Of a DNA stretch of 64,000 nucleotides, positions 1-63,408 are shown in pieces; the stretch's first letter is position 1, and each line of letters opens with the position of its first letter. The notes under the pieces were generated by a model. It made no database searches, was not told where the DNA came from, and was given only the letters and a program-made list of their open reading frames with translations. Source of the stretch: Elusimicrobiales bacterium (GTDB lineage Bacteria; Elusimicrobiota; Elusimicrobia; Elusimicrobiales; UBA9959). The position numbers and the translations under genes were made by a program. The DNA is taken from assembly GCA_028713125.1 (NCBI GenBank), contig JAQTOU010000001.1:78273-142272 (forward strand), written 5' to 3'.

Positions 1-135
1 GCATAAAACGAGCTAACGCATGAATTGAGTGGAGGGGTGGCAAGGGTATGGGTTCGGAGCGACCTCTCGGGATGGAGCGAAGCGACAGTTCTGCGCCCCG
101 ACTTCGCATCTCGCGGTCTTAATTAGGCTCGGGAC

Positions 136-3100: not shown

Positions 3101-4875
3101 TCGCCCTCCCCGGACTGCAGGCGGTGGTATTTGGCGTAGAGCCCGCCTTTGGCGAGCAGCTCGTCGTGCGTGCCGAGCTCCTTGACCTCGCCGCCGGAGA
3201 TCATCATGACCCGGTCGGCGTTCCTTACCGTGGACAGCCGGTGCGCTATGATTATGACGGTCTTATGCTTGAGCAGGTTCTTGATGGCCGTGGTGATCAG
3301 GCGCTCGGTATGCGGGTCCATGTTCGAGGTCGCCTCGTCGAGCACCAGCACCTCCTGGTCCAGCACCATCGCGCGCGCAAGCGAGATAACCTGTTTTTCG
3401 CCGATGGAGAGGTTGGCCCCCTTCTCCTTTACTACCTTGTCGAGAGGATGCTTCTTGAAGAAGGTCTCTATGCCCATCAGCCTGATGGCGTCATGCACGC
3501 GGCTGTCGGGGATAGAGGCGTCCATCAGCTTCAGGTTCTCCATCACCGTGCCGGGGAAAAGGTAGATGTCCTGCTGCACCAGGCCTATGGCCGCGCGCAG
3601 CGAGCCCAGGCTGAGCGTGCGGATGTCGGTGCCGTCTATCTCGATATGCCCCTTCTGGAAATCGTAGAAGCGGAACAGCAGGCTGGTCACCGTGGTCTTG
3701 CCGCCGCCGGTCTCTCCGAGGATGGCCAGGCTTTTGCCGCGCGGCAGCGTGAAGGAGACGTCCTTGAGCACCCAGCCCGCCTCCTCCTTATAGCGCATCC
3801 AGACATTGCGGAAATCTATGGATTCGCGGACGCTGGTCAGGTAATGGGGCTGGGCCGGCTCGGTCAGGGCCGGTCTGAGCTCGAGTATCTTCGCTATCCT
3901 GTGCCCGGCCGAGAAGGAGCGCTGTATGATGCTCAGATGCTCGGAGAAGCGGAAGATGGGGTCGAAGAGGTTTCCGAGGTACATGACGAACAGCAGGATG
4001 ACGCCCACCGTCATCTTGCCGTCCAGCACCATTCTGCCGCCGTAGTGGAAGACGGCCGCGGTGGCCGCCGGGTGCAGGAATACGATGCTGAGGAAGAAGA
4101 CCACCGTGTATAGCTCGACGCTTATGTCCGCGGTGAACCTCCTCTGGTTCAGCGCCTCCATCTTGGCCGAAGCGTCCTCCTCGCGGCTGAAAGCCTGCAG
4201 GACCCCGATGCCGTTGAGCTGCTCCGTCAGGAAACCGGGGATCTCCGCGGCGATCTTGCGGACCTTGACGAACATGGGCGAGGTGACCTTCACGAAGACC
4301 CAGCCTAAGAGCCCCAGCACCGGGAACATCGGTATCAGCATCAGCGTAAGCTTGAGGTTGAAGAATGCCATCACGCAGAAGACCACCGCGAACATCAATA
4401 TGTCGTTGACGATGGTGATGACGGTGTTGGTGAAGAGGGCGTAAAGCGTGCTGGTATCAGACTGCACCCGCGCGTTAAGGCGGCCGACGGGCATGGAAGA
4501 GTAGAACTCCAGGTCCAGGGAAAGGATGTGGGCGAGGATGCGCTGCTTCAGGTCCACTATCAGGTCCTGCCCTGCGCGGGCGAGCTTAAGCACCTGGAGA
4601 TAGTTGAAGTAGAGGAACAGCAGCGTCGTGAGGATATAGACCGCGGCGGCCAGCAGCAGCGCCCGCGGGTCCCTGGCCGGGATCGCCGTGTCTATCACGT
4701 ATTTTACTATGTAAGGGATAAAGAGGTTCAGCAGCGTGGCCGTGGTCATGTAGACGAAAGCGAGGAGAAACGGGCGCTTTCGCGTCTTTATCAGGCCGTA
4801 GAGGAGGCTGAATGTCGCCTTGTAGTTGATCTTCTCTTTCGGGTCCTGCCCGTCGTCGCCGAGCTCGTGGTGCAT
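3097..4875 (-). CDS. ABC exporter, fused permease/ATPase subunit (partner of 1331..3100)
   Basis: 592 aa. Walker A GETGGGKTT, signature LSIGEKQ, Walker B LVLDEATS. A 4-nt overlap with the downstream subunit suggests a heterodimeric exporter. Confidence 0.85.
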   Translation of the reverse strand: MHHELGDDGQDPKEKINYKATFSLLYGLIKTRKRPFLLAFVYMTTATLLNLFIPYIVKYVIDTAIPARDPRALLLAAAVYILTTLLFLYFNYLQVLKLARAGQDLIVDLKQRILAHILSLDLEFYSSMPVGRLNARVQSDTSTLYALFTNTVITIVNDILMFAVVFCVMAFFNLKLTLMLIPMFPVLGLLGWVFVKVTSPMFVKVRKIAAEIPGFLTEQLNGIGVLQAFSREEDASAKMEALNQRRFTADISVELYTVVFFLSIVFLHPAATAAVFHYGGRMVLDGKMTVGVILLFVMYLGNLFDPIFRFSEHLSIIQRSFSAGHRIAKILELRPALTEPAQPHYLTSVRESIDFRNVWMRYKEEAGWVLKDVSFTLPRGKSLAILGETGGGKTTVTSLLFRFYDFQKGHIEIDGTDIRTLSLGSLRAAIGLVQQDIYLFPGTVMENLKLMDASIPDSRVHDAIRLMGIETFFKKHPLDKVVKEKGANLSIGEKQVISLARAMVLDQEVLVLDEATSNMDPHTERLITTAIKNLLKHKTVIIIAHRLSTVRNADRVMMISGGEVKELGTHDELLAKGGLYAKYHRLQSGEGE

Positions 4876-5510: not shown

Positions 5511-6269
5511 TTATTTCTTCGCCGCGGAAGCGTCCTTGTAAACGCCCAGCGGGAATACCGGCAGCATGCCTTCGGCCACGAACTTCACGGCCTCCGAAGG
5601 GTTGTCCAGCCTGGTGCCCCAGTTGGTCGGGCACATTGAAAGGACCTCCACCATGGAGAAGCCTTTTCCGTCTATCTGGTTCTGGAAAGCCTTCTTAATA
5701 GCGGTCTTGGTCTTGATCACGCCCGGGACATTGTGGACCGTGGTGCGCTCGAGGTAGGTCGCCCCGTCGATAGTGGCCAGCATCTCGCACATCTTTATGG
5801 GGTAGCCCGACTGCTTGGCGGTGCGGCCTTCCTGGCAGGTCGTCGCTTTCTGGCCTATCAGCGTGGTCGGGGCCATCTGGCCGCCGGTCATGCCGTAGAT
5901 GGCGTTGTTCACGAAGATTACGGTTATGTTCTCCGAGCGGATGGCGGTATGGACTATCTCCGCCATGCCGATGGACGCCAGGTCGCCGTCGCCCTGGTAG
6001 GAGAACACGATGGTGTCCGGCTTGGCGCGCTTGATGCCGGTCGCTTCGGCGGGGCCGCGGCCGTGGGGGCCCTGGATCATGTCGCAGTTGAAGTAGGTGT
6101 CGGCGAAGACGGCGCAGCCCACCGGCGCCACGCCGATGGTGCGGTTGCGTATGCCCAGCTCGTCCATTACTTCCGCTATGATGCGGTGGATCGTGCCGTG
6201 GCCGCAGCCGGGGCAGTAATGCATCTTCACGTCCATCAGCGATTCGGGTCTTTTATTTTGCAGCTGCAT
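5511..6269 (-). CDS. 2-oxoacid:ferredoxin oxidoreductase, beta (TPP-binding) subunit
   Basis: 252 aa. CPGCGHG cysteine motif and TPP-binding YQGDGDLASIG..NNAIYGMTGGQ. Confidence 0.9.
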   Translation of the reverse strand: MQLQNKRPESLMDVKMHYCPGCGHGTIHRIIAEVMDELGIRNRTIGVAPVGCAVFADTYFNCDMIQGPHGRGPAEATGIKRAKPDTIVFSYQGDGDLASIGMAEIVHTAIRSENITVIFVNNAIYGMTGGQMAPTTLIGQKATTCQEGRTAKQSGYPIKMCEMLATIDGATYLERTTVHNVPGVIKTKTAIKKAFQNQIDGKGFSMVEVLSMCPTNWGTRLDNPSEAVKFVAEGMLPVFPLGVYKDASAAKK

Positions 6270-7341
6270 ATTCTTTGGCCCCCTTTTTTACGATGGCGTC
6301 CATGGTCTTGTAGACTTCTTCGGCGGTCATGACGGAGGCGCCGGGCTTGGCGTGGAGGTGGACTTCGGCGCGGCCGTTAAGCGCGAGCTGCACGTCCTCC
6401 ACCATCTGGCCCAGGCTCATCTCTACGGCCAGGAAATGCTTTATCCGCTTGGAGAGTTCCACCAGGCGGGCTTTAGGGAAGGGCCAGAGCGTGATCGGGC
6501 GGAACAGGCCCACTTTCAGGCCTTTCTCGCGCGCCAGCTTCATGGCGGCTACGGAGACGCGGGCCGAGATGCCGTAAGCCACTATGGCTATCTCGGCGTC
6601 TTCCAGCATCTTCTCCTCGTACATCACCTCGCTGGCCTCTATCTGCTTATAGCGCTTTACGCGCTCGTTGACCATCAGTTCCAGGAAGCCCTCGCGCAGG
6701 TCGTAGGACTTCGCTATCCGCTTCTCGCGGCCTTTGTTGACTCCTATGGCCCAGTTGGGTTCGGTCAGGGTCTTCGGGTCTATCTCAGGGGTGGTGAACT
6801 CGATCGGTTCCATCATCTGGCCGATCAGGCCGTCGGTGAGGACCATGGAGGGGATGCGGTATTTGAAGCCGACTTCGAAACACTTGTGAGGGAAGTTCCC
6901 CATCTCAGTGACGGAGTTCGGAGCCATTACGAAGGTGCGGTAGTCGCCGTGGCCGCCCCCTCGGGTGGCCTGCCAGTAGTCGCCCTGGGCGCCGGCTATA
7001 TTTCCCAGGCCGGGGCCGCCGCGCATAACGTTGCCGATGAAGATGGGCAGGTCCGCGCCGGCAGCGTAGGAGATGCCTTCCTGCTTCAGGCTCATGCCGG
7101 GGCTGGAGGAGGAGGTCATACAGCGCACGCCGGTGGCGGCGGCGCCATAGACCATGTTTATCGCCGAGACTTCGCTCTCGGACTGGATGAAAGCTCCGCC
7201 CGCCTGAGGGAGACGCCAGGACATATATTCCGGGATCTCGTTCTGCGGGGTTATCGGGTAGCCGGCGAAGAACCGGCAGCCGGCGCGCACGGCGCCTTCC
7301 GCCAGGGCTTCATTGCCTTTCATTAATTTTTTTTCAGCCAT
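6253..7341 (-). CDS. 2-oxoacid:ferredoxin oxidoreductase, alpha subunit
   Basis: 362 aa. N-terminus MKGNEALAEGAVRAGCRFFAGYPITP is typical of KorA/PorA-type alpha subunits. The 3' end overlaps the beta gene by 17 nt. Confidence 0.9.
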   Translation of the reverse strand: MAEKKLMKGNEALAEGAVRAGCRFFAGYPITPQNEIPEYMSWRLPQAGGAFIQSESEVSAINMVYGAAATGVRCMTSSSSPGMSLKQEGISYAAGADLPIFIGNVMRGGPGLGNIAGAQGDYWQATRGGGHGDYRTFVMAPNSVTEMGNFPHKCFEVGFKYRIPSMVLTDGLIGQMMEPIEFTTPEIDPKTLTEPNWAIGVNKGREKRIAKSYDLREGFLELMVNERVKRYKQIEASEVMYEEKMLEDAEIAIVAYGISARVSVAAMKLAREKGLKVGLFRPITLWPFPKARLVELSKRIKHFLAVEMSLGQMVEDVQLALNGRAEVHLHAKPGASVMTAEEVYKTMDAIVKKGAKEYAAAK

Positions 7342-44678: not shown

Positions 44679-44832
44679 TTTTTCTCCCCTGTCCGCTGTT
44701 AACTATATTATATTCCCGAACGGCGCTGAGGAGCAAGTCTATTTACACAAGCCCGCCGTTTATCTTAAAATCATTCTTAGATCAGGCGGTCCCCGATCGC
44801 GGGACGCAGCCGGGCCAAGAGCAGCGGTTTAT

Positions 44833-44863
44833 CCGCGGGACTATAGTATCCCGCGGTTTTTTT
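44833..44863 (+). terminator. Intrinsic terminator inside the 5' leader of the P-type ATPase gene (attenuator candidate)
   Basis: An 8-bp stem ccgcggga/tcccgcgg (44833-44856, 8-nt loop) followed by T7 (44857-44863). It lies 22 nt upstream of the ATG at 44885. No plus-strand gene lies upstream. Confidence 0.6.
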
Positions 44864-49189: not shown

Positions 49190-50956
49190 CTATTCGTGCT
49201 TGTAGTCTTCCTTTTTCTTCTTAAGGAAACGGGAGAACCAGCCCCCGGCGGCAGGCGGCTTGCCCTGGGCCGGGGAGTGAGTTTCCTGCCTCCCGCGGGC
49301 CGGCGGCCTGCGCCGGGGCTCGTCGGAGTCGAAATACGGAGAGGGGCTTACTATCCCGCCGCGTTTAGACGGGTCCACCCCGTAGCGGTTGGGCCCGGGG
49401 CGGGCGCCTGAAGGGCGCGGGCCGTAGCCGGGGCGCGCGTCGCGGCGCTGCGGGGGTCTTTCCTGCTGGTTGCCGGCGCTGCGGCCGTACGAGCCCTGGC
49501 GGGGCGGGCCCGACTGGCCGCGCCTGGGGCCGCCGGCCGGCGGGCGCGAAGGCCCTCGGCTGAAATTCCCCCGCGCCGGCGGCCGCCGGGACGGAGCCTG
49601 CGGCTCTACCGCGCGGTTATAATTCTTTTCGCCCGGCTCGGGCCGATGGGAGAACTGCTCTTCGCCGGACTGTACGGCCGGCTGCTGCCTGGGTTCGGGC
49701 CGGCTTTCCTGCGCGGGCCGCTCCTGGTATTCGCGGCGCGGGGCCGTCCTTGTTCCCGGGCGGCGCTTATCCCCCTGCTGACGCTGGCTGCCGTTGTGGC
49801 TGAAGCCGAAGCTGGCCGGCAGGATGTCGGGATGCACGGAGACGGGGAGCTGCATGCGCATCAGGCGCTCGATATTGCGGACGTCCCGGCCCTGGTCCGG
49901 CGCGGCGAAGGTGATGGCGCGGCCCGGCTGCCCCGCGCGGCCCGTGCGGCCTATGCGGTGGATATAGTTCTCGTCCTCGTCGGGCAGGTCATAATTTATT
50001 ACCAGCTCTATCCCGGTCACGTCTATCCCGCGGGCGGCGATATCGGTGGCCACCAAAATGCGGTATTTTCCCGCCTTGAAGCCTTCCAGCGCTTCGCGGC
50101 GCTGGGCCAGGGAGCGGTTTGAGTGGATCTCGGCGGCGCTGTGCTTCATGTCGCGCAGCTCCTTGGCCAGCTTCTTGGCGTTATGCTTGGTGCGCACGAA
50201 CATCAGCACGCTCCCCCAGTATTTGTCCAGGATCTTGGCGAGCAGGGGAAGTTTATCCCCGCGGCTGACGATAAAGAGCTCCTGGTCCACTTTCTCGGCT
50301 ACGGTGCCGGAGCGGGCGACCTCGATGCGGGTGGGCAGCTTCATGTGGGCGGCGGCCAGCTTCATTATTTCGTCGGGCATGGTGGCCGAGAAAAGCATGG
50401 TCTGGCGCTCTTTGGGGAGGGCCGCGATGATCCTGTTTATCTGGGGGGCGAAGCCCATGTCGAACATCCGGTCCGCCTCGTCGAGGACCAGGACGCGCAC
50501 GTCTGACATTATGACGTTGCGCTGTGTGATATGGTCGATCAGCCGGCCCGGGGTGGCGATTATAATGCGGGGGCGGCGGAACAGCTCCTGCCGCTGTCGG
50601 CCCAGGCTTTCCCCGCCTATGATCACCGCGGTCTGCATCCCCATCAGGGGGGCGAACTGCTTTACCACTTCGGCGACCTGCAGGGCGAGCTCGCGGGTCG
50701 GGACGAGGACGAGGCCTTTCCCCTCCTTGGCGGCGAGGCGCTGTATCATCGGGATGGCGAAGGCGATAGTCTTGCCTGTGCCGGTCTGGGCGATGCCCAC
50801 CATATCGTTCCCCTCGGAGGCGACGGGAATCGCCTTCTGCTGTATGGGAGTGGGGGTAGTGAACTTGAGTTTGTCTAGAGCTTCGAGCAATTTAGGGGCT
50901 ATCCCCAGGCCGTAGAAGCCGGCGGCTGGCGTTTGATTTATTTCGGTCATATACAA
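49190..50956 (-). CDS. DEAD-box RNA helicase with ~190-aa Arg/Gly/Pro-rich C-terminal tail
   Basis: 588 aa. Q-motif TPTPIQ, AQTGTGKT, VLDEADRMF, SAT and HRIGRTGRAG. The low-complexity tail (RRPPARG, GPRRGQSGPPRQG..) starts around residue 395. Confidence 0.9.
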   Translation of the reverse strand: MYMTEINQTPAAGFYGLGIAPKLLEALDKLKFTTPTPIQQKAIPVASEGNDMVGIAQTGTGKTIAFAIPMIQRLAAKEGKGLVLVPTRELALQVAEVVKQFAPLMGMQTAVIIGGESLGRQRQELFRRPRIIIATPGRLIDHITQRNVIMSDVRVLVLDEADRMFDMGFAPQINRIIAALPKERQTMLFSATMPDEIMKLAAAHMKLPTRIEVARSGTVAEKVDQELFIVSRGDKLPLLAKILDKYWGSVLMFVRTKHNAKKLAKELRDMKHSAAEIHSNRSLAQRREALEGFKAGKYRILVATDIAARGIDVTGIELVINYDLPDEDENYIHRIGRTGRAGQPGRAITFAAPDQGRDVRNIERLMRMQLPVSVHPDILPASFGFSHNGSQRQQGDKRRPGTRTAPRREYQERPAQESRPEPRQQPAVQSGEEQFSHRPEPGEKNYNRAVEPQAPSRRPPARGNFSRGPSRPPAGGPRRGQSGPPRQGSYGRSAGNQQERPPQRRDARPGYGPRPSGARPGPNRYGVDPSKRGGIVSPSPYFDSDEPRRRPPARGRQETHSPAQGKPPAAGGWFSRFLKKKKEDYKHE

Positions 50957-53334: not shown

Positions 53335-54603
53335 TTATCTGCGGCGCCTTGGGCCGCCGCCGGGCCTGCGCGCGGAGCGCTGGTTCCAGCCGCGGCCTCC
53401 GGCCGCGTGGTCGTAGCCCCAGAGGGTTTCCGCCGGAACTTCGGGATGCGTCACCTGGTTCATGGGGATGCCCGTAAGGGTCTCTATGCTGCGGACGTCG
53501 CCGCCCTGGTCCGGAGTGGCGAAGGTGATGGCGCGGCCCGGCTGCCCGGCGCGGCCGGTGCGGCCTATGCGGTGCACATAGGCGTCGTCTTCCGACGGCA
53601 TTTCGAAGTTGATCACAAGCTCTATCCCGGTCACGTCTATGCCGCGGGCGGCGATATCGGTGGCAACGAGTATGCGGTATTTCCCGGATTTGAAGCCGGC
53701 CATCGCGTCCTTGCGCTGGCCCATGGTGCGGTCGGAGTGTATCTCGGCCACCGCGTGGCCCATGTAGGAAAGTATGCTAGCCACCTTCGCGGCGTCATAG
53801 CGGGTTTCGACGAAGATCAGCACGGTGCCGGCGTATTTCTCCAGGAGCTTTGAAAGCAGCAGCGGCTTGGAGCCGGTGCGCACGACGTAGAGCTCCTGTA
53901 TGACGTTGGCGGCGGAGGTTCCTGATTTGGCGACCTCGATGCGGATGGGCAGCTTCATGTGCTGGCTGGCCAGCTTCATGACCTCGTCGGGGATGGTGGC
54001 GGAGAACAGCATGGTCTGGCGCTCTTTGGGCAGGGCGCGGATGATGCGGTTTATCTGCGGCGCGAAGCCCATGTCGAACATCCGGTCCGCCTCGTCGAGC
54101 ACGAGGATGCGGGCGTCGTCGACGCGGAGGTCGCCCCGCTCTATATGGTCGTAGACGCGGCCGGGGGTGCCTATTATTATCCTGGCTTTGCGGTGGAGGT
54201 CGCGCAGCTGGGTTTCCTTCCCTTCGCCGCCGATAAGGCAGGCGACGCCCATCCCCATCTGCGGGGCGAATTCGCGGCAGACTTCGGCCACCTGCAGGGC
54301 CAGTTCGCGCGTCGGGAGCAGCACCAGGCCCTTGCCGGGCTTGGCGGCGAGGCGCTGTATCATCGGTATCGAGAAGGCGATGGTCTTGCCGGTGCCGGTC
54401 TGGGCTATGCCGACCATGTCCTTGCCTTCGGTGGCGATGCGTATCGATTTCTCCTGTATGGGAGTGGGCGTTACGAAGCCTTTTTTGTCGAGGATATCCA
54501 TGAGCTTCGGAGCTATGCCGAGCCCGTAGAATCCTGAGGCCTCTTTCATCAGTCCCAATTTCTCCAGGGCTGTGCGGCCGATCTTAGTAAGTAGCTTTTT
54601 CAT
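53335..54603 (-). CDS. DEAD-box RNA helicase (paralog of 49190..50956)
   Basis: 422 aa (alternative start at 54549). AQTGTGKT, VLDEADRMF, SAT and HRIGRTGRAG. Roughly two-thirds identical by eye to helicase 1 over the core. Short RGG/RRRR tail. Confidence 0.9.
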   Translation of the reverse strand: MKKLLTKIGRTALEKLGLMKEASGFYGLGIAPKLMDILDKKGFVTPTPIQEKSIRIATEGKDMVGIAQTGTGKTIAFSIPMIQRLAAKPGKGLVLLPTRELALQVAEVCREFAPQMGMGVACLIGGEGKETQLRDLHRKARIIIGTPGRVYDHIERGDLRVDDARILVLDEADRMFDMGFAPQINRIIRALPKERQTMLFSATIPDEVMKLASQHMKLPIRIEVAKSGTSAANVIQELYVVRTGSKPLLLSKLLEKYAGTVLIFVETRYDAAKVASILSYMGHAVAEIHSDRTMGQRKDAMAGFKSGKYRILVATDIAARGIDVTGIELVINFEMPSEDDAYVHRIGRTGRAGQPGRAITFATPDQGGDVRSIETLTGIPMNQVTHPEVPAETLWGYDHAAGGRGWNQRSARRPGGGPRRRR

Positions 54604-54614
54604 ATATTATCTAT

Positions 54615-54623
54615 ATTATAGCA
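54615..54623 (-). promoter_or_regulatory. Extended -10 box (TGcTATAAT) directly upstream of helicase 2
   Basis: On the minus strand it reads TGCTATAAT. Its 3' end is 11 nt from the ATG at 54603, so either the leader is very short or the start at 54549 is used. Confidence 0.4.
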
Positions 54624-54674
54624 CGGTATAAAGCCGCAGAAACAGAACCGATAAGAACCGCGAGATGCGAAGTC

Positions 54675-54997
54675 GGGGCCTACCGCAGGGGCAGGAACGA
54701 AAAACACGTTCGGCCACACCGTGGCCTCACTCGGTATTCGCCCGCCGGGCTATGCAACCGGCGGGCTCAACGACGGTTTTTCTTATCCTGCCCCCGCGGT
54801 CTCCCCTCCGCTCGGCTTTGAAGGCCGAACGTCTTTCTTTAAAATAGTGTAACCTGGGCGGAGACCGTGGGTGCAGGGTTAGCAAAAGCCCGTCGGAGGC
54901 CGACGCTTGCGTAAGCGCGGAGGCCGAGACCGGCAGGCGCGCGCACGGTGTGCGCGACGCCGGTTTTGCGTTCCTGCACCCACGGTAGGCCGCCCAG
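54675..54997 (-). repeat. Two tandem ~130-145-nt imperfect palindromes built from four copies of a ~29-nt repeat
   Basis: Repeat copies lie at 54677-54705 (forward), 54776-54804 (reverse), 54860-54888 (forward) and 54963-54991 (reverse). Hairpin A spans 54675-54806 (about 25 bp in segments). Hairpin B spans 54854-54997 (8 + 14 bp perfect, plus 6 bp). Each encloses small perfect hairpins. Confidence 0.7.
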
Positions 54998-55035
54998 CAG
55001 ATTTCCCGCTTGGCGAGTATTCTGTATTCCTAAAT

Positions 55036-56445
55036 TTAGTTCAGCTCAAACTCTTCGCCCATGTTGGGGCATTTTACGTTCTTGATGCCTTCGGCCGCGA
55101 GCGAGGCGGAGAGGGCGGCGCGGGCTTCGGGGTCGCCGTGCACCAGGAAGACGCCCCGCGCTGGCTTGGCGGCTTTGATGAAGGCGAGCAGGTCGTTCTT
55201 GTCGGCGTGCGAGGAGAAGGTGTGCATCGTCTCGACGCTGGCCCAGACTTCGTGCTCGAGGCCGAAGATCTTGACTTTTTTCAGGCCGTCCTGCAGCTTC
55301 CTGCCCAGGGTGCCCTGGGCCTGGTAGCCGACGAGGAGGATGGTGGTGTTCTCCTTCTCTATGTTGTTCCGGAGATGGTGCAGAACGCGGCCGCCTTCGC
55401 ACATCCCGGAGGCCGAGATTATCAGCATCGGACCTTTCAGATTATTGAGCCGCTGCGATTCTTCCTTGCTGCGCACGTAGCTGATATAGTCGAAGCCGAA
55501 CGGATCTCCGTCGATGCGGGCATAATCGCGGAATTTGTCGTCGAAGCTGAAGCTGTCCCGGTGTTTGTTGAAGATCTCGGTCAGGCTGACGGCCATCGGG
55601 CTGTCCACATAGATAGGTATAGCGGGGACGGTCTTGTCCCCGCGCAGCTTGTCCAGTATTACGATCAGCTCCTGCGTGCGCTCCAGGGCGAAGCTGGGGA
55701 TTATGACCTTCCCTCCCTCTTTCCAGGCTTTCTTTATTACGTCCGCGAGTTTCCCGGCCGCGTCGGCGAGGGGCTCGTGCAGGCGGTCGCCGTAGGTGCT
55801 TTCTATAACAAGGTAATCCACGCTCTGGGGCGCCGCCGGGTCTTCTAGCAGCAGGGTTTCGGCGCGGCCCAGGTCGCCGGTATAAACCAGGCGCCGTATC
55901 CCCCCGGCGGTTTCTATATCAAGCTGCGTCATGGCGGAACCCAGCACGTGGCCGGCGTTGAGGAATTTCGCTTTCACGCCAGGCACCGGGTCGAAGCCGG
56001 AATTATATTCGCGGGGTTTGAAATGCCGCAGCGCAAGATCCGCGTCTTCCTCGTCGTACATCGGCTCTATGGTCAGGTTCTCCGCGGCGTGTATTTTATT
56101 GTAGAACTTCGCGTCGCCCTCCTGGAGGCGGGCGGAGTCGGCGAGCATTATGCCCGCTATTTCGGCGGTGGCGGCGGTCGCGTAAACAGGGGCGTCGCAG
56201 CCGTTCTTGTAAAGCAGCGGAAGCAGCCCGCAGTGATCCACGTGCGCGTGGCTGAGCAGCACGGCGTCGACGGAGGCCGGCGGAAAGCGGAAGGTGCGGT
56301 TCTTGGCGTCCGCGTCGCTGCGGTGGCCCTGGAACATCCCGCAGTCCAGCAGCAGGGTTTTATCTCCGACCTCGAGCAAATGCCTCGAGCCGGTGACTTC
56401 CCCCGCGGCGCCGTGGAAAGATATTTTAGCTTTGTTGTTTATCAT
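55036..56445 (-). CDS. Beta-CASP family metallo-beta-lactamase-fold ribonuclease
   Basis: 469 aa. HxHxDH motif (LLSHAHVDHCG). The length and layout match the COG1236-type MBL + beta-CASP + RNA-specificity domain architecture. Confidence 0.8.
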   Translation of the reverse strand: MINNKAKISFHGAAGEVTGSRHLLEVGDKTLLLDCGMFQGHRSDADAKNRTFRFPPASVDAVLLSHAHVDHCGLLPLLYKNGCDAPVYATAATAEIAGIMLADSARLQEGDAKFYNKIHAAENLTIEPMYDEEDADLALRHFKPREYNSGFDPVPGVKAKFLNAGHVLGSAMTQLDIETAGGIRRLVYTGDLGRAETLLLEDPAAPQSVDYLVIESTYGDRLHEPLADAAGKLADVIKKAWKEGGKVIIPSFALERTQELIVILDKLRGDKTVPAIPIYVDSPMAVSLTEIFNKHRDSFSFDDKFRDYARIDGDPFGFDYISYVRSKEESQRLNNLKGPMLIISASGMCEGGRVLHHLRNNIEKENTTILLVGYQAQGTLGRKLQDGLKKVKIFGLEHEVWASVETMHTFSSHADKNDLLAFIKAAKPARGVFLVHGDPEARAALSASLAAEGIKNVKCPNMGEEFELN

Positions 56446-57096: not shown

Positions 57097-57984
57097 TTGA
57101 AACGCTCTACAGGTCTACTCTCACTGATAGCTCTCATCGTCGTGCCATTCGCATTTCCGGCAGCTCAGCCGGCGCCCGCCTTTGCCACCCTTAAAGGTGC
57201 AGCGGCGGGTTTTTCATTCTCCGTGCCTGCCCCGGAGGCCCCCTTTCTCTTCAACCTTCCCCGCGCGCCGCAGGACGCCCTGTCCGGCGAAGCGCTCTTC
57301 GCCTACCTTCATGAGGCTACGGCGCCGGCCCCCCGCAAGACACCTGCTTCATATAGAGCTGCCAAATCATTTATGTACGCCAAGGCCGACAATACCGGCT
57401 GCAACGGCGCTCCCGGTATCATAACCGCTTATTCCCAGCTATGCGTGAACGGCTCCAGCGATAACGGCGATAATTATAAGGAACAGGGCGACCAGAACGT
57501 AGATGGAATAGCCGGGGACTTCGTAAACGCGGAGCATGTCTGGCCTCAGAGCTATTTTAACAGTTCCCTGCCCATGGTGGCTGACCTCCACCACCTGATG
57601 GCGACGCTGTCCACCCCGAACGGCCGCCGCGCCAACCTGAAGTTCGCCAGGGTTTCGAAGGCCACCTACAGCACGTCGTCCGGCTCGAAACTCGGCAAGG
57701 AGGGCTTTGAGCCCGATGACTCTGTAAAAGGCAATGTGGCCCGCGCGCTTTTCTACTTCATAGAGCGTTACAGCGATAAGAATATCCGCCAGGGCATGGA
57801 CTACAACAGCTTCTGGACGAACAATGTACAGATGCTGCTCGATTGGAACCGCCAGGATCCGCCCGACGCAAATGAGCGCCGCCGCAATGACCTTATCGAG
57901 GGTTTTCAGGGGAACCGCAATCCTTTCATAGACAATCCCGAACTGGCCGACAGGGTCGGCGCGCCTGTTTTTAAAGCCCATTGA
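57097..57984 (+). CDS. Secreted endonuclease I (EndA/Vvn) family nuclease, copy 1
   Basis: 295 aa. TTG start (GGAGG-n4-TTGAAACGC). Signal peptide present. Motifs NAEHVWPQS, EPDDSVKGNVARALFYF and NRNPFIDNP. Confidence 0.8.
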   Translation: MKRSTGLLSLIALIVVPFAFPAAQPAPAFATLKGAAAGFSFSVPAPEAPFLFNLPRAPQDALSGEALFAYLHEATAPAPRKTPASYRAAKSFMYAKADNTGCNGAPGIITAYSQLCVNGSSDNGDNYKEQGDQNVDGIAGDFVNAEHVWPQSYFNSSLPMVADLHHLMATLSTPNGRRANLKFARVSKATYSTSSGSKLGKEGFEPDDSVKGNVARALFYFIERYSDKNIRQGMDYNSFWTNNVQMLLDWNRQDPPDANERRRNDLIEGFQGNRNPFIDNPELADRVGAPVFKAH

Positions 57985-62520: not shown

Positions 62521-63408
62521 TTGAAACGCACCGCGCTATTGCTCGTGTTTGCCTTTGCCGCCCAGGGTTTTCTGCCCGGCCGACTGCCGGCGCAAAGCCT
62601 GCCCAGCTTAGAAGATTTCCAGTCCGGCCTGCCCGGACTGGCGGTTCCGTCCCCTCTCCCCCCGCTTCGCGCCCCGCAGTATCTCTCGCCGGCCGCCGGG
62701 TTAAGCGGAGAACAGCTTTTCCAGTTCCTGCATAAAGCCACCGAGATGCCGAACGGCCGCGGCGGCAAGGATTACCTTAACGCTAAAAAATTCATGTTCT
62801 CCTCGGCCGATAATACCGGCTGCGGCGGCGGCCCCGGTGTGACCTGTCTTTATTCGCAGGTCTGCGCCAGGGGCGCAAGCGAACACGGCGAGGATTATAA
62901 GGAACCGGGCGACGCCAACGGCGACGGGACCAACGATTCCGGCGGCATGAACGCGGAGCATTCCTGGCCGCAGGGCTTCTTCAACCAGGCCGCGCCAATG
63001 AAGTCGGATCTCCACCATATTTTCCCCACTTTCATAACCCCGAACAATACCAGGGGCTCCGTGCCCTTCGGACCTGTTGCCCGCCCGCAATACCAGACCG
63101 CCAACGGAACCAAATTCGACGGCGGGGAATTCGAGCCGGCCGATCACGTAAAAGGCGACATAGCCAGGGCGATACTTTATTTCGTCGTCCGGTATTATGA
63201 CCGGAACATCAGGGACGGGATGAGCTATAAGGACTTCTGGACCAGCCGCGTGCCGATGTTCCTGGACTGGAACAGGCAGGACCCGCCAGACGCGGCCGAG
63301 ATCCGCCGCAACGACCTTATCGCTAATTTCCAGGGCAACCGGAATCCTTTTGTGGATGACACGACGCTGGCCGCGCGGGTCGGCCTCCAGACTTTCCAGT
63401 CCCATTGA
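62521..63408 (+). CDS. Secreted endonuclease I (EndA/Vvn) family nuclease, copy 2
   Basis: 295 aa. TTG start in the same GGAGG-n4-TTGAAACGC context as copy 1. Motifs NAEHSWPQG, EPADHVKGDIARAILYF and NRNPFVDD. Confidence 0.8.
   Translation: MKRTALLLVFAFAAQGFLPGRLPAQSLPSLEDFQSGLPGLAVPSPLPPLRAPQYLSPAAGLSGEQLFQFLHKATEMPNGRGGKDYLNAKKFMFSSADNTGCGGGPGVTCLYSQVCARGASEHGEDYKEPGDANGDGTNDSGGMNAEHSWPQGFFNQAAPMKSDLHHIFPTFITPNNTRGSVPFGPVARPQYQTANGTKFDGGEFEPADHVKGDIARAILYFVVRYYDRNIRDGMSYKDFWTSRVPMFLDWNRQDPPDAAEIRRNDLIANFQGNRNPFVDDTTLAARVGLQTFQSH

Follow-up and report, generated by a model that had tools for sequence, protein, structure and literature searches.

The described systems closest to the element reported here are the REP (repetitive extragenic palindromic) sequences of Proteobacteria, with the bacterial interspersed mosaic elements (BIMEs) and the REP doublets forming hairpins (REPINs), whose enzyme is the REP-associated tyrosine transposase (RAYT), a Y1 HUH transposase. 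The REP unit is an imperfect palindrome of 30–40 nt, and the BIMEs of Escherichia coli pair y and z REPs (PMC3333891). Here we analyze positions 54604–55035 of a 64,000-nt stretch of an Elusimicrobiales genome (contig JAQTOU010000001.1; "the window" below means this whole stretch), an intergenic region between a beta-CASP RNase gene and a DEAD-box helicase gene in which an earlier note, made from the sequence alone, had seen two tandem hairpins built from four copies of a 29-nt repeat. We put the probability at about 0.75 that the region holds a copy of a dispersed, composite and non-coding repeat found in high-GC Elusimicrobiales, most likely a mobile element that is non-autonomous and resembles either the REP/BIME/REPIN group or the miniature inverted-repeat transposable elements (MITEs) and mobile insertion cassettes (MICs). 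Such a REP/BIME- or MITE-like family is apparently undescribed, since full-text literature searches found no description of an Elusimicrobia repeat family or structured RNA like it, and the phylum has almost no mobile-element annotation. Its unusual traits are a 137-nt three-way-junction module, a convergent-pair rule, a 23-nt motif at one side only, covariation confined to Watson-Crick pairs, and low-GC foreign cargo.

The module and its composite

The features of the element in the window are listed here by coordinates and strand.

54656–54678, plus strand: 23-nt terminal motif AACCGCGAGATGCGAAGTCGGGG, the outer 5′ extension of modules with a GGGG...CCCC foot (alpha-type); it marks one end of the composite
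54675–54806, forward on the plus strand: module A, alpha subtype, a long P1 stem with internal loops plus hairpins P2 and P3
54712–54726, plus strand: P2 of module A, GGCCAC-ACC-GTGGCC
54740–54766, plus strand: P3 of module A, GCCCGCCGG-loop-CCGGCGGGC
54807–54853, no strand: AT-rich spacer separating the facing 3′ ends of modules A and B
54854–54997, forward on the minus strand: module B, beta subtype with a GCGG...CCGC foot, an inverted relative of A in sense orientation to the RNase transcript
31–118, minus strand: decayed third copy, alpha′ subtype, in which the 23-mer (96–118) is joined by a stub of the module's 5′ end and, beyond an internal deletion, by its 3′ half

The four arm copies lie where the earlier note had placed them, at 54677–54705 (+), 54776–54804 (−), 54860–54888 (+) and 54963–54991 (−), and its two large hairpins, A (54675–54806) and B (54854–54997), as well as the small hairpins inside them, are real. 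The predicted minimum free energy (MFE) structure of 54650–55005 (356 nt, folded as RNA) consists of two separate branched hairpins at −196.5 kcal/mol (z = −8.6 versus shuffles), and module A alone, folded as DNA, gives −42.6 kcal/mol (z = −6.5). The 29-nt repeat is not the unit, however; the real unit is a module of ~137 nt that is present twice in inverted orientation. Nor is it correct that only the arms are conserved around unrelated interiors, as had been supposed: module B, once reverse-complemented, aligns with A from end to end as a diverged copy (92/136 aligned positions identical, 67.6%), and the two share the inner hairpins P2 (GSSCAC-ACC-GTGSSC) and P3 (loop GCTTAYGCAAGC) and asymmetric feet (5′ GGCCTACCG, 3′ CGGTCTCC). 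A covariance model built from the module (R1) matches the window only at A (54673–54809, 159.8 bits) and B (54855–54995 on the minus strand, 123.5 bits). Outside the four arms the core motif of the arms has a single match in the window, at chance level with two mismatches.

The earlier note had also proposed an alternative nested pairing, arm 1 with arm 4 and arm 2 with arm 3. The outer-flank matches behind this proposal are indeed exact, but they and the nested pairing arise because A and B are inverted copies of one asymmetric module, and the predicted MFE structure keeps the two hairpins separate. One long A:B hairpin was thus rejected as the main fold, also because paired modules usually differ in subtype. 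Inversion of the interior alone, as in an inverton, was likewise considered and rejected, since the asymmetric internal loops of P1 invert along with the interior; covariance-model scores are 120–160 bits on the forward strand versus 24–36 on the reverse strand.

The 23-mer at the left border of the element recurs at the window start (96–118, minus strand; 0 expected by chance), as the earlier note had reported. The remnant that it belongs to (31–118) was identified by alignment with the alpha′ modules of L118, L069, L101 and L015 (L-numbers are loci that we collected from genomes and metagenomes), and its partner module may lie just outside the window. The spacer between A and B contains a small hairpin with a T-rich tail (54812–54828) and a weak promoter-like match on the plus strand (54818–54845), the latter a consensus match only, with 1 site found versus 0.4 expected. 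A 60-aa open reading frame (ORF) lies inside the repeat and has no Pfam match, in agreement with the previous view that it is probably spurious.

A search for further copies of the arm and the 23-mer, which the earlier note had suggested, found a dispersed family in Elusimicrobia. The first scan covered one genome per GTDB species (596 Gb) with the pattern ACCGYRGGKGCAGGN{5,6}AAAA and returned at least 116 stretches, where roughly 280 chance matches to the arm pattern were estimated for this amount of DNA. About 30 of the 116 matches listed came from Elusimicrobia metagenome-assembled genomes (MAGs), often several per genome and often as +/− pairs ~100 nt apart, and the copies extracted from them have a conserved element of ~137 nt that extends beyond the arms alone. 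In the collected loci model R1 finds full-length copies at 46–162 bits, and a census with an nhmmer profile counts 157 modules in 108 loci; more than 150 module copies were found in MAGs and metagenomes of high-GC Elusimicrobiales. With a stricter 23-mer motif, at least 120 metagenome stretches match. GWC2_64_44 has at least 10 loci with matches among those listed, and the window itself has two full copies and one remnant in 64 kb.

No matches were found in plasmid and phage collections or, by blastn, in 5,426 E. coli genomes, and in viral contigs there was one 23-mer match only (L245), at a locus with no covariance-model match. Rfam has no match in the region at the gathering threshold, and at E <= 10 there are only two chance matches to small nucleolar RNA models. 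When ORFs were clustered across the loci, nothing came back except spurious ORFs covering the repeat and a single syntenic block, that of L067, L081 and L103, from which the empty-site comparison below is taken.

All copies are intergenic, and their neighbors include genes for a ComF-like phosphoribosyltransferase, GltX, NifS/NifU, PurC, an H+-pyrophosphatase (H+-PPase), a major facilitator superfamily (MFS) transporter, AllG/AllH and a CN-hydrolase. Because the copies adjoin such unrelated housekeeping genes, the link to RNA metabolism that the RNase and helicase had suggested is refuted: many scattered copies were the outcome named beforehand as fatal to it, and more than 150 are now found beside unrelated genes. 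A tempting regulatory-RNA story joining the two genes is thereby removed, and the locus holds a generic repeat. We claim no enrichment for any orientation of the flanking genes, for which a nearest-ORF count (mostly convergent or tandem) and a longest-ORF heuristic disagreed; the latter mis-called known genes in these high-GC sequences.

Modules are almost always paired. In the nhmmer census (108 loci) all 24 cases of adjacent modules no more than 150 nt apart are convergent, a plus module followed by a minus module with 3′ ends facing, and the other three possible arrangements have 0 cases; the spacers of these convergent pairs measure 1–86 nt and fall into conserved linker families. One partner is usually of alpha type, with a GGGG...CCCC foot and the 23-mer (consensus CGCGAGAWGCNNRGTCGGGG) on its outer side, and the other is of beta type, with a GCGG...CCGC foot. 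The alpha types comprise several P1 subtypes, some with divergent interiors that the covariance model barely detects, and in at least 24 loci the 23-mer consensus stands directly before a module, with several P1 subtypes represented. No conserved promoter or other conserved sequence was found upstream of the 23-mer, and inspection by eye gave no convincing sigma-54 or sigma-70 promoter match in or before it.

The whole composite is found at seven or more loci with unrelated flanks in GWC2_64_44, in the order beta module, spacer starting TTCTAACTGTTACAGCA, alpha module and 23-mer, and there the beta modules of different loci are 95–100% identical. The window composite is 85.6% identical over 341 nt to that of L117, which adjoins gltX in another species. 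Since the whole composite recurs at unrelated loci, a unit of ~340 bp is what is repeated.

We also note that several modules carry, within or beside P2, a mini-insertion of ~25 nt containing TGTCGCT(T/C)CGCTCCA or its complement GGAGCGAAGCGAC (L119 at ~4478–4505, L123 at ~4497–4522, L088, L039, L046, and the remnant at the window start at ~62–88 on the minus strand), which may be a nested micro-element.

Probable mobility and the known repeat systems

The pattern of identity between copies points to movement. Copies in L117 and L084 match module A at 98.5% identity and copies in seven further genomes at 92–95.5%, all nine being at other loci in representatives of other GTDB species. For three other Elusimicrobia species, orthologous coding DNA reaches only 79–87% identity. 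At L117, L047, L079, L019 and L015 the copies have unrelated genes as neighbors.

One site can be compared in empty and occupied form. In L103 the site (4986/4987) is empty, a single base separating the stop codon of the CN-hydrolase gene from the start codon of AllH, L081 has a 151-nt forward module at this site, and L067 has a module of a different subtype there in reverse orientation. No target duplication accompanies the insertion (L103 CCATA|TTACTG, L081 CCATA[151 nt]TTACTG), in this single empty-versus-filled comparison.

Orthologous RNase–helicase spacers of relatives also differ in the subtype, number and orientation of their modules, as the following list shows (percentages are RNase protein identities).

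L118, 95%: remnant, forward module of another subtype, alpha′ module and 23-mer
L119, 88%: pair, one member with an insertion
L120, 86%: one reverse module
L121, 84%: one forward module
L123, 76%: terminator, pair, and remnant with 23-mer
L124, 64%: degenerate forward module

One module carries an insertion of its own. In L190 a 1.18-kb insertion sequence (IS) of the IS110 family (779–1962) lies exactly in the conserved P3 loop of an alpha′ module (GCTCTT^ACGTAAGC) and encodes a 320-aa protein with DEDD_Tnp_IS110 and Transposase_20 domains, and a fragment of the same IS stands next to a 23-mer at a contig end (L187, 1–103); no further IS110 copies in modules were found.

Taken together, these observations give the following picture. 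The ~137-nt module folds on either DNA strand into a long interrupted P1, a three-way junction and the short hairpins P2 and P3, and two modules face each other by their 3′ ends across an AT-rich spacer of ~45 nt, with the 23-mer capping one outer end. Most likely, an enzyme whose gene lies elsewhere would recognize the folded DNA hairpins and the conserved P2/P3 loops and so copy the composite into further intergenic sites. We infer that movement is by transposition or recombination of hairpin DNA.

Several points weigh against this. Mobility is inferred solely from the pattern of copies, as no copy was found to have a transposase or RAYT-like gene next to it, and the target-duplication test stands on one comparison. 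Modules persist downstream of the same RNase gene across 64–95% protein identity, which could be retention for a host function instead of repeated insertion, and the P2 and P3 loops, which hardly vary from subtype to subtype, are under a constraint that may benefit either element or host.

Among described systems the family behaves most like REP/BIME/REPIN. Both are extragenic, have many copies, and form DNA hairpins from imperfect palindromes whose stems differ by subtype yet stay complementary. Like REPs, the modules occur mostly as inverse pairs of two subtypes with linkers, and copy number and content per locus vary between strains in REPs (PMC3333891) much as they do between relatives here. 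The IS110 copy in a P3 loop adds a further likeness. IS110/IS1111 elements often insert into REP sequences. The differences are that the Elusimicrobia unit is ~137 nt with a three-way junction and not a simple 30–40-nt hairpin, that a family-wide GTAG 5′ of the hairpin foot is absent, that the composite has its 23-nt terminal motif at one end only, that A and B (68% identical) are too different to form the one long hairpin of a REPIN, and that the phylum is a different one. The CTAC/GTAG of the alpha and beta subtypes appears as 5′-CTAC-hairpin and hairpin-GTAG-3′, the opposite of the REP geometry, and is missing from the alpha′ (GGCCTGGCAAGG) and alpha″ (GGCCAGCCGGGG) subtypes. RAYT/Y1_Tnp had no match among the ~35 flanking or cargo ORFs scanned.

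MITEs and MICs, including the Correia elements of Neisseria, resemble the family in being short, non-coding and intergenic with inverted-repeat arms, in having near-identical copies within a genome and variants with internal insertions or deletions, and in having versions whose ends flank passenger genes and no transposase. Unlike them, it shows no target-site duplication at the single comparable insertion, and its termini are asymmetric, the 23-mer forming one end and the foot of a beta module the opposite one; inverted repeats are present as the P1 arms of each module and as the two modules, but the outermost ends of the composite differ. The inner hairpins show covariation, for which terminal repeats that simply bind a transposase have no need. 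No autonomous IS sharing the composite ends was found in ~245 loci.

Enterobacterial repetitive intergenic consensus (ERIC) sequences, or intergenic repeat units (IRUs), are imperfect palindromes of ~127 nt in Enterobacteria. They share with the modules their size class, intergenic location, conservation across species and internal-insertion variants, but they are single long palindromes, neither three-way junctions nor obligatory convergent pairs, and the E. coli comparison above showed no sequence similarity. Finally, the attC sites of integrons and of clusters of attC sites lacking integron-integrases (CALINs) are imperfect palindromes of 60–140 nt in which structure matters over sequence, constrained as folded DNA and associated with small accessory cassettes (toxin-antitoxin genes, ORFans). 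The modules differ from attC in having no R″/R′ core sites (RYYYAAC/GTTRRRY), their stem bases being GGGG/CCCC or GCGG/CCGC; in their convergent pairing, where attC sites form same-orientation arrays with one site per cassette; and in cargo that carries its own promoter. No IntI or other integrase was found among the scanned neighbors.

Possible host retention, cargo and the question of RNA

One alternative, though unlikely, is that the composite is a DNA element retained by the host, either as a cruciform or protein-binding site (for a nucleoid protein or topoisomerase) or as a recombination landing pad where foreign cassettes are captured between the two modules. The persistence of modules at the orthologous RNase–helicase spacer over deep divergence and their Watson-Crick-only pairing (below) are in its favor, as is the DNA found between separated pairs. 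All eight convergent pairs that lie 420–4350 nt apart enclose low-GC DNA, with a GC fraction of 0.39–0.52 compared with 0.53–0.63 in the rest of each locus, whereas among other module orientations the interval GC is 0.04 or more below the rest of the locus in only 3 of 17 (L015, L185, L209). Seven of these pairs come from the census and the eighth is that of L103. The cargo intervals are as follows.

L103: 151–1040
L129: 1139–1619
L132: 6875–7397
L160: 3358–3914
L172: 780–2240
L177: 1161–1580
L181: 134–1828
L200: 598–4944

The cargo includes a specificity subunit of a type I restriction-modification system and a methylase-like protein (L200) and ORFans and secreted proteins (L103, L132, L160, L181), and toxin-antitoxin pairs occur in L172 and L190; no transposase was found in DNA enclosed by convergent pairs. 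The L103 pair is filled, while L081 and L067 have empty pairs at the orthologous site, which makes one filled pair and two empty ones in three species. The unrelated cargos of L103 and L132 both begin with a promoter-like ATTGACTTTCACTT...AATATTA right after the 3′ end of the beta module, and one toxin-antitoxin cassette (88% nucleotide identity) adjoins different module subtypes in L172 and L190. A candidate for a crossover motif at cargo junctions is TCTAAC..TGTT(T)A, which adjoins the 3′ end of the beta module.

These cases resemble the relation of MITEs to MICs, or alternatively a capture site. In its most specific form the latter would make the convergent pair a portable gene-capture landing pad that travels the genome as an empty ~340-bp composite, whose spacer receives promoter-bearing foreign cassettes through an unlinked recombinase or HUH enzyme reading the P2/P3 hairpins and the 23-mer; the window copy would then be an empty site. 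This is speculative and probably wrong; if true, it would add to a little-studied phylum a cassette system that resembles integrons or MICs and has sites of a new architecture. The sample of cargos is small, eight cases from loci ascertained through the repeat itself, and the pairs have no linked recombinase. Permissive intergenic gaps may simply accumulate foreign genes and repeats alike, and near-identical copies in different species suit mobility more than vertical retention. Host retention and a mobile origin are not exclusive; the two are compatible.

Two further observations concern these loci. A second repeat of ~137 nt lies inside the L200 cargo (4607–4743; cargo positions 4010–4146), is 95–98% identical in L173, L180, L197 and L126 and 87% identical in L177, and seems to represent another repeat family, in a relative of lower GC. 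In L015 a gene with an ORF6N domain (6136–6735) lies between two modules of the same orientation, and a partial duplicate of its 3′ half lies downstream at 7020–7299.

The other substantial alternative is that the modules are functional structured RNAs, either 3′-untranslated region (UTR) elements acting in cis as terminators or as stabilizers against 3′ exonucleases, or multi-copy small RNAs (sRNAs); at this locus the modules would be part of the RNase mRNA. The covariation analysis in relatives, another suggestion of the earlier note, bears directly on it. RNAalifold applied to 19 sequences returned the long interrupted P1 closing a three-way junction with P2 and P3, in which 15 of the 44 predicted pairs have compensatory changes. 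Among 41 model-aligned copies, 95.8% of cells are paired and 35 of 43 pairs have double changes; none of 500 shuffles reaches the observed covariation and no slid control comes near it. In favor of RNA, covariation is very strong and the fold very stable, and the copies are always intergenic. In addition, transcription from either side of a convergent pair first meets a forward module, and module B is in sense orientation to the RNase gene and starts 39 nt past its stop codon.

The kind of pairing, however, does not have the character of RNA. Of 1674 paired cells 94.9% are Watson-Crick, 15 (0.9%) are G·U and 17 (1.0%) are A·C. An RNA structure selected in one strand should tolerate G·U and disfavor A·C; with both equally rare, there is no RNA signature on either strand. 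The weak hint of a minus-strand RNA that had been drawn from a single A-C mismatch in hairpin A, which becomes G-U on the minus strand, thus finds no support across the family. A constraint on DNA or on both strands accords better with this pairing pattern than a one-strand RNA does; matched protein-binding arms would accord with it too, and so would correction between the arms. In L081, L067, L015 and L123 copies follow closely after a canonical intrinsic terminator, the 23-mer has no conserved upstream promoter, a single module can have either orientation relative to one and the same upstream gene (L120 versus L121), and Rfam has no match. An RNA role for the modules is thus disfavored, and we rate it about as unlikely as host retention. 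Among the options left by the earlier note (3′ UTR, sRNA or REP/MITE-like insertion), the last is supported and the sRNA and RNase- or helicase-specific readings are not. Searches for RNA motifs by covariation alone could be misled by such a family, which the covariance model could serve to mask or to census.

Chance palindromes or an assembly artefact can be dismissed as a negligible possibility: a Logan short-read contig whose RNase gene is identical to that of the window (L001, 4451–4498) stops within module B, 88 nt past the end of that gene, and the repeat family does break short-read assemblies at such points, but the same architecture is found in more than 100 independent assemblies and the fold z-scores are −6.5 to −8.6.

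Flanking genes and other features of the window

The genes on either side of the region are those that the earlier note had named, and the promoter box that it had proposed for the helicase is supported by conservation.

53335–54603, minus strand: DEAD-box helicase gene, the left flank of region 54604–55035
54615–54623, minus strand: extended −10 box TGCTATAAT, 12 nt before the ATG of the helicase gene
55036–56445, minus strand: beta-CASP/RMMBL RNase gene, the right flank of region 54604–55035

The block CTATAATATAGATAATATATG before the helicase start (54603–54623, minus strand) is conserved in six genomes (the window, L118, L119, L120, L121 and L123) and is constant in the five syntenic relatives among them while the repeat content upstream differs. 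Its conservation supports an independent, short-leader promoter that probably belongs to the helicase gene itself, and as the −10 box ends only ~12 nt before the ATG, the leader must be very short or absent. The element at this locus simply occupies the gap between the RNase stop codon and this conserved promoter. The RNase transcript would enter module B in sense orientation unless terminated earlier, and any effect on the stability or termination of the RNase 3′ end would be a by-product. Homologs of the RNase bear out the Elusimicrobia origin of the window, the closest named one being that of GWA2_61_42 (86% identity), and an exact-protein look-up found no identical helicase protein on record.

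A second, paralogous DEAD-box helicase gene lies 3.6 kb from the first (49190–50956, minus strand), and the two share stretches of 260–300 nt at 77–79% identity. Elsewhere in the window, positions 57361–57593 and 62782–63017 contain three collinear direct-repeat blocks, 72–77% identical and 5.4 kb apart, which suggest a pair of paralogous genes, and the Rfam scan identified a NiCo (nickel/cobalt) riboswitch aptamer at 44768–44845 (plus strand; 38.5 bits versus a gathering score of 37).

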